A DNA stretch of 64,000 bases from Candidatus Babelota bacterium (GTDB taxonomy: Bacteria; Babelota; Babeliae; Babelales; CAIQNR01), in assembly GCA_965658655.1 (NCBI GenBank), contig CBFHTA010000001.1, positions 178,507 to 242,506 on the forward strand. Reading direction: 5' to 3'. How positions within the stretch are numbered: position 1 is the stretch's first letter; the number at the start of each line of letters is the position of its first letter. Under the pieces are notes generated by a model, which saw only the letters and a list, made by a program, of their open reading frames with translations, ran no database searches and was not told the DNA's origin. This document shows positions 20,138 to 23,100 of the stretch, one piece after another. Position numbers and translations under genes: made by a program.

Positions 20138-23100
20138 TTAACTTGGACCGCCCATGATTGCAAATTTGCCGTCGCTACTAATTTTTGAGTTGATGTTTGA
20201 TTGTGATGGTGGGGTTTGCCCATGCTGTAAATACCAGAAGGTGCTGTGTGCGGGTGCTTGGTGTTGTGGTTTGCCCTGATCGTCTTGATTGGGACCTTCT
20301 TGAGGCGGTTGGCCAGGATCGCCTTGGTCGAGGCCTTCTTGAGGTGTTTGCCCAGGATCGCCTTGAGGCTGGAAGTTGTTTTGTTGTTGTTCTTGGCCTT
20401 GTTGTTGTGGAGGTGCAGTTCCATGCTCAAGGAGCCATTTATGCTCTCGATCTTTCTCATTCAGTTCGATGCCTTGTTGTTTAAACGAGTTTATAACCTG
20501 TTGATTTTCTTTTTTTCTTGGTCCTGCAACTTCGAGTCGGGTTGCCGGAGAAAGTATTTGGTATTCTACGGCAACACCAGAAGAGATCACTCCCATAGAT
20601 CCAAATGCTTCAGAAATTTTTCTGCTTTGAGATTGCTGCTCCTTGCCCGATATAGTCCATGCAACTACTTTTGGTTGAACATCTATAACTTCTTTAACTT
20701 TCCATGTTCCTGTTTCTGGAACAGATTCCTGTCTTCTTGTTACTCGCCATCCCTGTGTCTGAGGTTGACCGTTTTGAGTTCTTCCAACACGCCAGGCTCC
20801 AGTTCTAGAGCTTTGGTCTTGTTGATGATTTTCATCTATAGGCCTTTGTGTTGTTGGAGGTGCTTGCTGTTGTTTTTTGGCTGGCTTGGTAACAATAAGT
20901 TCAAAGGGGTCGGCATCATTCGGAAGTTGTATTGGTTCTATTACAGGGAGCCTTTTTGCTTGAGGTGTTTGGAAGGTAACCCATCCATAGGGTTCATTTG
21001 TAGCTTCTTCCCAGCATTTAACCTGTGTTGTTTGCTCCTGGACCTTCATCTTCATGCGGTACCATACACCACGCTGATAGGTAACTCCTTCAATGTTTCT
21101 ATTCAACCACCCATCACCTTCACCTTGGTGTTGATAGAACCCGAGTGATGGTGGCGCTCCATATTCTTTAAAGATAACCAGGCTGCGACTGAGGGTATTA
21201 TAGTTAAGAAGGTTTCTATTAAAGGTGTCTAAGTTTTCCCATGTTTTATCTACGTATTGACCAGCATTAGGTCCAGAAAGTTCTAACGCATCCTTATAAT
21301 TTTTATTGAGTGCATGCAAAAGAGGAATGTCCATAACTTGTTCACTCATAAAGATGCCAACATAGAAGTTTCCTTCTGTTTCGTAAATGGTCCGGAATCG
21401 TACTTCAACCTCTAGGCCGTCAGGCCCCCATACATTAGAGAGATCTTTCTGATTAAGCCAGAAACCGGTGGATGCAGGTGATGTGGTAAATAAAGAGTTC
21501 TGTGTGGTTTTAAGAGTTTGTTTTGGTGTGGTTGCTGTTTCTTGTGCAAATGTATTGCGTGCAACATTAAAGGAATAAATTCCGCCTGCGGGGTTAAGGG
21601 CCATTCTACTAGTTTTAATGCCATACAATTGCCCCGGATCAGAACTTTCAACTGCGGTATAGGGATCGGGCATAGTAATCTTCTGATAGAAGTTTCCTAA
21701 AGCCATGCTTTGTGTAGAAATGGTGGCGTTAAACTCTTGGTTTAAGAAATTTTGGTAGTAAACAAGGCCACGTTCTGAGTTTTGTTTCTCAGTAGCAAAT
21801 TGTACTGTTGCTTCTATCAGAGAAGCTTCTTGCACAGCCTTGGCAGCATTTTCTTGTGCGGGGATGCCTTGCTTATAGGCTGCTAAAATAGCATCTTGTT
21901 GCTTTTGTTTTTTATGCGCGGCAATGTCTTGTTGTACATCTCCCATGGTTCCAATAACCATCATTCCAGTTCCGGCAGCCATCATAGTCCCTGCAGCAAT
22001 AGCCATTGGGATACTCAGTTCTGCAAGCGATCCAAAGCTCCCTACGGTTATAGCAATACCAACCACAAGTAAAAGACCTCCAATGATGGTACGACGCCAC
22101 CTGTGTACACCATTTTTAATTTTGTTATAAACGCTTAAACCGTTTCCTCCAACCATGTCAATGGCAAGCGCAACAACGTCTGCTATTACATCTCCAATGA
22201 GAGCAACAATAGCGTCACAGAGATAGGCAACACTCTTCATGAGTGCTGAAAGCACCGCTCCCACTGCATCGGTTAAGAAGGTGACTTCGCTTAAAATACT
22301 GCTTACTACGTCTTTTGCAAAGTAATCACCTTCTGATTTAAATGCTGACCAAGTTCCTCCTTGCCCAGCGGTAACTGCTGCCATTACGAGAGATTCTACA
22401 ACCACCATGGCTTCGGCAGTAAGTCGGAATGTATCGAAAGTGCCTTCAATGGTATAATTAGTAAGATCATCTAGGGAATCTACCAGGCCGTCTCCAAGAG
22501 CATCTAAAAGGCCGGAGGTGTCTTTTGCGAAGCTTTCATCGTCTATAATTATTCCAAGACCTTGGCCAACAATTGAATCAGCTACAGATAACCCTGCTTT
22601 TACAATGTTGCCTACTTGATCTACTGTTTGGGCTAAATCGTTGCCCATGTTAGAGAATTCGCTGAATGATCGTTGGAAAAACTTTGCACCATCTTTAGGG
22701 TCTGCAATGGCAAGTGCCGCAGCTGCAAAAAAGTATCCTGTACCTTTAAAAAAGTCTCCAATTCCATCTGCAAGGTCTTCTCCAAAAGCTTTACCGGCTT
22801 TTTTTATATTAGCCCAAGCGCTTACTGCTGTTTTTGCAATGGCATCAGCTGCTGTTTTAAATGCATTGCCTACTGAGTGCCAAAAGCTATCCCAGCTTTG
22901 CACCGATGGTTGTTGTTGTGATTGGCTTCCAGGCGAGTCGGCTACCAGCGGCATCATTTCTCTTATTCCTTCTAGGTATGGATAGTCGGCTGGTATATAG
23001 GGGAGAATATTGGGAAACTGTTGTAAAAAACCTGGGTTTCTTTGTTCTAAAGAAACGAGTTTTTGCATTGTGGGTTCTAAATTTTCTGCAGTAAAAAGAT

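Follow-up and report, generated by a model that had tools for sequence, protein, structure and literature searches.

The DNA analyzed here is a window of 64,000 nucleotides from the genome of a Candidatus Babelota bacterium (contig CBFHTA010000001.1, positions 178,507 to 242,506), with a GC content of 35-43%, and our subject is the last of three large, translationally coupled open reading frames (ORFs) within it, which we designate genes A, B, and C. All coordinates refer to the window and to its minus strand unless stated otherwise. Gene A (27489..31076) encodes 1195 amino acids (aa), gene B (24328..27492) encodes 1054 aa, and gene C (20138..24331) encodes 1397 aa. The B/A and C/B start-stop overlaps are 4 nt each, with the ATG of gene C overlapping the stop codon of gene B (ATGA). 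All three products carry signal peptides, as do all of the A-like and B-like proteins of related loci. A first-pass annotation of this DNA had described a Gly/Ala-rich core and a two-lobed hydrophobic segment at 21930-22960, which corresponds to aa 458-801 of protein C, and both were confirmed. The four peptides it quoted are all present, at aa 531-544 (GYFFAAAALAIADP), aa 639-659 (AEAMVVV...GQGG), aa 683-729 (VTFLTD...DMVGG), and aa 748-797 (TIIGG...GTMG).

Protein C begins with a Sec-type signal peptide at aa 1-19 (24275..24331; MKKITCILFSLFFFMYGA followed by EQ). In the alignment of close homologues, its layout of an MKKI start, an h-region, and SA followed by EQ is conserved as MKKI...F...SAEQE, and a signal-peptide-like N-terminus was found in 86 of 100 full-length relatives of C. 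The NCBI copy of C (P0001, 1383 aa) begins 14 codons after the ORF start (window 24290-24331) and is missing the conserved MKKI signal peptide present in all of the homologues; its start site was probably mis-called.

The core of C is distinct in composition from the remainder of the protein, as Gly plus Ala account for 25% of aa 458-801 compared to 12% elsewhere, while the residues GAVLIMF account for 58% compared to 36%. AlphaFold2 was run on C aa 96-1290 and on aa 440-840, in each case with 9-sequence alignments, and both runs returned a mean predicted local distance difference test score (pLDDT) of 34.9. The confidence of these models is unusable, and secondary structure alone was taken from them. 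Both runs predict four long acidic amphipathic helices within aa 480-727 (22151..22894), used here for their boundaries only, which span aa 480-543, 545-596, 599-654, and 661-727 and comprise 52-67 residues each. The hydrophobicity periodicity of all four peaks at 95-100 degrees (z = 3.7-7.6 compared to shuffles) and the net charge over aa 480-727 is -19. The earlier description of amphipathic or hydrophobic helices ahead of the hairpin, in a protein with a signal peptide, is borne out by this periodicity and by the conservation of the signal peptide. The hydrophobic helices preceding the lobes are best regarded as amphipathic rather than transmembrane, because they contain Asp and score +5 to +7 kcal/mol. 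Similarly, hydrophobic windows beyond the hairpin are nearly all located in the adjoining helices, which carry Asp or Glu. Small-xxx-small and heptad small-residue motifs numbered 32 in the core versus 26 +/- 3.5 in shuffles, which is not a significant enrichment, and we make no claim of a glycine zipper in this region.

Following the four helices, both AlphaFold2 runs place the two lobes in separate helices with a break between them. Lobe 1 (aa 748-767, TIIGGLLLVVGIAITVGSFG; 22031..22090) is preceded by a basic motif at aa 743-747 (22091..22105), which reads HRWRR in this protein and H-R-R-x-I in the family consensus, and it ends in an invariant turn glycine, G767. Judged by its hydrophobicity, lobe 1 is clearly transmembrane-like: its Kyte-Doolittle score peaks at 2.27 over 19 residues, and its Hessa-scale insertion energies add up to about -0.1 kcal/mol. 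The turn (aa 768-773, SLAELS; 22013..22030) leads into lobe 2 (aa 774-797, IPMAIAAGTMMAAGTGMMVIGTMG; 21941..22012), which is Gly/Ala/Met-rich with a Kyte-Doolittle maximum of 1.51 and a Hessa sum of +2.5 kcal/mol. These values would make lobe 2 marginal as a lone transmembrane helix and plausible as the second arm of a hairpin. A polar motif follows immediately at aa 798-802 (21926..21940), which is DVQQD here and G-x-x-Q-x-D in the family consensus.

The extent of the protein C family only became apparent from profile searching. Word-indexed searches with C and its alignment identified 9 close homologues of 50-71% identity, and an exhaustive profile search with C aa 96-1290 identified 133 family representatives after clustering at 50%, of which 81 fell below 1e-30. 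Members are mostly 1300-2700 aa in length, and the majority have in common the N-domain motif, the helical core, the hairpin, an NxER.L.YYQN.LN region, a beta domain, and a GS.G.I.SG.AVEY motif. The lobes were located across the family by extraction anchored on a hidden Markov model and the hairpin was alignable in 86 representatives. Lobe 1 measures 17-20 residues across the family, and of the nine close homologues aligned, four have a lobe 2 that is shorter by 8 aa. In an alignment of 54 diverse sequences with 20% mean column identity, just nine columns are invariant and two of these are G767 in the turn and Q800 just past lobe 2. D802 is retained in 53/54 sequences and T/S765 in 52/54, while the columns of the basic motif contain H/W/Y745 in 54/54, R746 in 35/54, R747 in 40/54, and I749 in 46/54. 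Small residues are also kept in lobe 2, at positions 789 (G/A, 48/54) and 797 (G/S, 52/54). The resulting family signature consists of [H/W/Y]745-R746-R747-x-I749, about 16 hydrophobic residues, T765-G766-G767, the turn, lobe 2, and Q800-x-D802. The hairpin is the best-conserved part of C, and it is likely to be functionally important because its flanks rank among the nine invariant columns of the whole protein. As measured in this alignment, its conservation is well beyond chance and exceeds the requirements of a passive anchor.

In most family members, the turn between the lobes consists of 4-15 residues and is uncharged or singly acidic. At least 11 representatives instead carry a charged insert of 76-590 aa exactly between the lobes, composed of acidic or Ala/Lys/Glu-rich low-complexity sequence (D/E/K/A-rich). 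These include P0058, P0072, P0074, P0085, P0094, P0097, P0099, and P0113, among others, and one such protein is encoded at L086:10001-14875. Since P0058 sits in the same M23-A-B-C-uvrC gene order as the C protein of the window, it is an orthologue of C and not a different protein. In the long-insert relatives (n = 11), the 15 aa that precede lobe 2 carry an average charge of +2.5 (KGKKKSKWTK and PKPPKGKFAK are examples), compared to -1.3 for the 15 aa that follow it and -2.5 for the 15 aa that follow lobe 1. A basic stretch, a hydrophobic helix, and an acidic flank around lobe 2 is, at the level of sequence, the layout of an internal signal-anchor, and it occurs in those proteins whose long cytoplasmic loop would oblige lobe 2 to restart export. 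The 2716-aa relative P0090 appears to have a far longer Ala-rich stretch between its lobes, and its N-terminal domain is apparently duplicated.

None of the annotation resources that we searched provided a match for this family. Proteins A, B, and C had no Pfam, NCBIfam, or PHROG match above noise, five distant relatives of C likewise had no matches in Pfam, and the retrievable names of C relatives are all "hypothetical protein". When GTDB genomes were scanned with 8-residue patterns derived from the aligned C sequences, which proved too specific, no relative could be confirmed. No PDB sequence match of C was judged homologous; the profile search returned designed helical bundles, FtbJ, a tape measure protein, and apolipophorin-III, all considered non-homologous because the similarity looks compositional (26 bits of bias in the FtbJ stretch). 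Foldseek searches of both C models against the PDB yielded no match at E <= 0.001. Matches of the helical core to Smac, a chemoreceptor, ClyA, and ExbB were rejected as meaningless at a pLDDT of ~35, and the matches to ClyA and MakA had E > 0.1 on the same model and are not evidence. By these searches, the protein C family has no described relatives.

Outside of the core and hairpin, C contains several further conserved segments. The N-terminal domain (aa 96-470; 22922..24046) includes the motifs IFTYIPNFETAYY and ELVRLSLVLSD as well as invariant alignment columns, and profile positions 86-195 within it were found again in distant relatives. The post-hairpin region (aa 803-954; 21470..21925) contains NSERGLVYYQNFLN, DPGxLYGIKTxRxALNP, and RNTFAQE in invariant or near-invariant columns and is covered by most of the distant profile matches. 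It is followed by a beta-rich domain (aa 955-1125; 20957..21469), for which AlphaFold2 predicts beta strands with a pLDDT of up to 63. This domain is possibly a concanavalin-like jelly roll; its best Foldseek PDB matches are legume lectins at E = 0.02, which serves as a hint only. Trp-containing repeats of the form TxxW[KRT]V follow at aa 1177-1232 (20636..20809) in the alignment. At the extreme C-terminus (window 20138-20245), members of the window clade end in a conserved ...GKFA.(L/M)GGP(S/N), and many distant orthologues (P0019, P0038, P0046, P0090) end in an aromatic Gly-rich tail (...TGGF, ...DFGF, ...GFSF). Such tails could be a sorting or assembly signal.

The two proteins encoded upstream of C are exported as well. 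Protein A has a signal peptide followed by a poly-Pro run and no transmembrane segment, and an A-like gene holds this position in all related loci. B-like proteins were found at the matching position in L084-L087 (E = 1e-37 to 1e-125). The first-pass annotation had also noted a Met-rich hydrophobic segment of B at a position equivalent to the hairpin of C. The segment exists (aa 573-598; 25699..25776) and is conserved, with F585, M586, D587, M589, M590, G591, Q593, L594, A595, and W598 all invariant. However, it is not predicted to be a transmembrane helix, given a Kyte-Doolittle value of 1.31, a score of +6 kcal/mol, and an invariant Asp, and no equivalence of position can be claimed, as BLASTP and hhalign detected no homology between B and C at the Met-rich segment and the hairpin. 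The same two programs found no paralogy among A, B, and C apart from a weak match between the Trp repeats of B and C (hhalign E = 0.005, probability 7%), which is the sole B-C similarity. B carries its TxxW[KRT]V repeats at 25228-25356 (aa about 713-755), with 3-4 copies in B and C, and these repeats may be a shared short binding motif. One B orthologue, L086:8275-9999, has a lipoprotein lipobox (MTKKIISLCILTFLSGC), whereas B of the window has a plain signal peptide.

Divergent from gene A, at a distance of 74 bp, lies a gene encoding an M23/LytM peptidase (31151..32443, plus strand) that has a membrane anchor at its N-terminus and retains intact catalytic motifs (HxxxD and HxH). This divergent arrangement is conserved in every related locus that extends beyond the upstream end of gene A (L001, L085, L086, and L087), and M23 identity across loci is 52-86%. 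Every related locus examined (L001, L003, L084, L085, L086, and L087) has the order M23, A-like, B-like, C-like, usually with uvrC and then clpB after C. MlaE and an ABC ATPase are encoded ~6 kb downstream in all of the syntenic loci. Compared to the window, L001 is 92% identical in ClpB, 88% in UvrC, 86% in M23, and 62% in C, while L003 is 87% identical in ClpB and 52% in C. The corresponding values are 75% (ClpB), 60% (UvrC), and 30% (C) for L084; 72% (ClpB), 65% (UvrC), 65% (M23), and 26% (C) for L087; 54% (M23) and 23% (C) for L085; and 49% (UvrC) and 52% (M23) for L086. C consequently diverges much faster than its neighbors, falling to 62%, 30%, and 26% in L001, L084, and L087 where ClpB remains at 92%, 75%, and 72%, yet the gene order is strictly kept. 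From these comparisons, M23-A-B-C is a fixed chromosomal feature across deep lineages, and C is fast-evolving outside of a few motifs.

Several small ORFs nearby also encode exported or signal-peptide-bearing products. A 245-aa exported ORF with no family match lies between uvrC and clpB (18097-18834). It is likely a lineage-specific insertion, since uvrC directly precedes clpB in L001 and L003. Two adjacent small ORFs of 107 and 156 aa (14693-15495) share the near-identical signal peptide LTLFC[KR]VPLFAA, and the 107-aa product has an ankyrin-like stretch.

The closest match of the ClpB protein encoded 2 kb downstream of gene C comes from a Candidatus Babeliales (Dependentiae/TM6) metagenome-assembled genome, at 65% identity, with all other matches at <=55%. 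The Dependentiae are a widespread phylum of obligate protist parasites of which only a handful of isolates exist. The window contains a cluster resembling type II secretion and type IV pilus systems (804-9340), which includes two secretin genes (804-3440 and 5469-8210), a PilM-like gene (4012-5472), and GspC (8213-9340). The two secretin genes agree with the two copies of gspD reported for all TM6 genomes (PMC4776705). No type III secretion gene was found in the 64-kb window, the only SctN-like match being the F1 ATPase beta subunit (atpD). On this evidence, the window derives from a Dependentiae-like bacterium and not from a chlamydia. Dependentiae are described as intracellular (PMC6561590, PMC4776705) and rely on Sec to export an unusually large fraction of their proteome (PMC6561590). 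Our literature search found no paper linking a bilobed hydrophobic domain to Dependentiae.

Considering these features together, we favor the view that protein C is a Sec-exported envelope protein that is held in the inner membrane of the bacterium itself by its central helical hairpin, and we assign this a probability of roughly 50%. The proposed biogenesis draws upon the sequence features described above and upon established knowledge of the Sec pathway. The N-terminal signal peptide would direct the ~720-aa N-terminal part, comprising the N-domain and the four acidic helices, to the periplasm. Lobe 1 would then stop transfer, for which its insertion energy of about 0 kcal/mol should be sufficient. 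The turn, or the long charged insert of some orthologues, would remain cytoplasmic, and lobe 2 would restart export of the ~600-aa C-terminal part with its conserved alpha/beta region and lectin-like beta domain. Both large domains would accordingly reside in the periplasm, with HRR and QxD adjacent to one another on the periplasmic surface of the membrane. The signal peptide and the charge pattern of the long-insert relatives are self-consistent with an N-out/C-out topology, in which the N-domain and helices are periplasmic, lobe 1 runs out-to-in, the turn or insert is cytoplasmic, lobe 2 runs in-to-out, and the C-terminal 600 aa are periplasmic. C has each of the elements expected of a Sec-inserted inner membrane hairpin anchor, since its signal peptide is followed by one helix suited to stopping transfer and by another with the features of a signal-anchor.

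C is most economically read as the sole membrane-anchored subunit of an exported A-B-C trio that is functionally tied to the M23/LytM peptidase. A module that is fixed across lineages in which UvrC identity falls to 49% is typical of core envelope machinery rather than of accessory effectors. More speculatively, C would anchor a periplasmic scaffold that acts on the cell wall and the layers outside it or links them to one another, with the four helices forming a stalk and the beta domain perhaps binding glycans. Published work could detect none of the four established outer membrane tethering systems (Lpp, Pal, OmpA, and OmpM) in the ten Dependentiae genomes available at the time (bioRxiv 10.1101/2021.05.31.446380). 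A still bolder version, in which A-B-C is a Dependentiae-specific envelope-spanning scaffold that replaces these tethers and whose beta domain binds cell wall or outer membrane glycans, is something of a long shot.

Several observations weigh against an inner membrane anchor. The conserved HRR would be periplasmic, contrary to the positive-inside rule, although our reading is that HRR is a functional interface motif beside QxD. Orthologues with long inserts have an acidic flank on the cytoplasmic side of lobe 1, and lobe 2 by itself is only marginally hydrophobic (+2.5 kcal/mol). Both AlphaFold models of C are unusable (pLDDT 35), and the functional link to the M23 peptidase has gene order as its sole basis. 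The fast divergence of C is also typical of surface or host-facing proteins. Furthermore, some Sec-secreted alpha-helical toxins of Gram-positive bacteria (Hbl/Nhe) carry hydrophobic hairpins and nonetheless leave the cell.

A rival explanation gives the hairpin a different destination. C could be secreted, for example via the type II system encoded ~10 kb away, and its hairpin, shielded within a bundle of the acidic amphipathic helices, could then insert into the membrane of a host phagosome or vacuole in the manner of a pore former, a translocator, or an Inc-like protein, in which case A, B, and C might operate as a tripartite system in which A lacks a hydrophobic segment, B has a single weak one, and C has two. 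We consider this unlikely, even though a number of features would suit it. A hydrophobic helical hairpin beside long amphipathic helices is also the layout of pore formers and translocators (colicin and diphtheria T-domain; ClyA/Hbl/Nhe/Ahl; IpaB/YopB/CopB), and a three-gene operon with products differing in hydrophobic content recalls the tripartite toxins. The core charge of -19, with Asp lining the hydrophobic helices, resembles the acidic core of pore formers that could respond to pH and would be suited to acid-triggered insertion. Most orthologues have a short turn with almost no charge, C diverges rapidly compared to its neighbors, the lifestyle of the lineage is intracellular (PMC6561590, PMC4776705), and secretin and GspC genes are present within the window. 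In opposition to this, a long charged loop such as those of the insert-bearing orthologues could not cross a target membrane after secretion, which argues against insertion into a host membrane and for co-translational insertion into the bacterial membrane. The Lys/Arg-rich end of the insert before lobe 2 resembles a Sec signal-anchor, and lobe 1 is hydrophobic enough to be arrested in the Sec translocon. The hairpin is flanked by domains of ~720 and ~600 aa, C is ~4x larger than the pore formers and has no profile or reliable fold match to them, and its locus displays a fixed chromosomal synteny with an M23 peptidase across deep lineages. No toxin, Inc, or translocator family was matched in Pfam, NCBIfam, or the PDB, and the window is devoid of type III secretion genes. 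The first-pass annotation had inferred from the bilobed segment of a signal peptide protein that it enters a membrane other than the bacterial inner membrane; that inference is unsupported, as the long inserts fit Sec insertion.

The analogy to chlamydial inclusion-membrane (Inc) proteins and secretion system translocators is likewise not supported. C does share with the Inc proteins a bilobed hydrophobic segment of ~50 aa with two ~20-aa lobes and a short turn (aa 748-797), as well as an obligate intracellular host bacterium. However, Inc proteins and translocators are without Sec signal peptides, whereas C has one in place of a type III secretion signal and originates from Dependentiae rather than Chlamydiae. 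The Inc hairpin is near the N-terminus of a small protein, whereas that of C is in the middle of 1397 aa between domains of ~600 or more aa. C orthologues may additionally contain huge turn inserts, and C has no sequence match to Inc families. Compared to the type III translocators (IpaB/SipB/YopB/CopB), C has no Pfam or NCBIfam match and its neighbors are an M23 peptidase, uvrC, and clpB.

It is also conceivable, if rather improbable, that the lobes never span a bilayer at all and instead form the buried core of a soluble periplasmic helical bundle similar to apolipophorin-III or a soluble colicin pore domain, possibly binding lipid or dipping into one leaflet. The marginal hydrophobicity of lobe 2 and its shortening in four of nine close homologues would be in keeping with this, as would the MlaE and ABC ATPase genes downstream and the weak, composition-driven profile matches to apolipophorin-III (E = 0.019) and designed helical bundles. 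Yet, these PDB matches have a high compositional bias, while lobe 1 retains 17-20 residues throughout the family with a Kyte-Doolittle value of 2.27 and an energy of ~0 kcal/mol in C. An invariant Gly at the turn, together with conserved polar motifs at the interface, is typically seen in genuine transmembrane hairpins, and a soluble bundle leaves the signal-anchor-like flank of the long-insert orthologues unexplained. Lastly, long Gly/Ala-rich helices with hydrophobic stretches are reminiscent of tape measure proteins, and the family profile weakly matched FtbJ (9j1k_J, E = 1.3e-5) as well as a 6v8i chain with the annotation tape measure protein gp57 (E = 1.1e-3), at about 20-26 bits and with high bias. 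This raises the idea that the region is the remnant of a phage or tailocin tape measure, or is related to one. We can give this hardly any credence, as the likeness is compositional only: the best FtbJ stretch scores 19.8 bits against 26.4 bits of compositional bias. In addition, A, B, and C have no PHROG match, neither the window nor the six related loci contain phage genes, the locus is chromosomal among housekeeping genes, and C possesses a signal peptide along with large globular domains that are not helical. Tape measure ancestry is effectively refuted by the excess of bias over score, together with the lack of a PHROG match and of a phage context.

Among the systems considered, C would therefore seem to work most like an ordinary Sec-inserted helical hairpin anchor, albeit in a family without described relatives. 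With such anchors it shares the signal peptide, the stop-transfer helix, the cytoplasmic turn, and an export-restarting second helix, to which its long-insert orthologues add a Lys/Arg-rich flank before the second helix. It departs from generic hairpin anchors in that its flanks (HRR, TGG, and QxD) are more conserved than a passive anchor needs and in that its basic residues are conserved on the predicted periplasmic side.

This locus represents a large unannotated module of three exported proteins, with a gene order that is conserved across deep lineages and tied to a cell wall peptidase, and its protein C is most conserved at residues of the membrane hairpin. The case of C also shows that Inc-like proteins cannot be diagnosed from a bilobed hydrophobic domain alone, and the long-insert orthologues of C give a simple, testable prediction of topology. 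If the hairpin were to insert into host membranes, A-B-C would constitute a new class of effector or pore former that is secreted without a type III system. If the module is instead an envelope scaffold, it would bear upon how the Dependentiae hold a degenerate Gram-negative envelope together.

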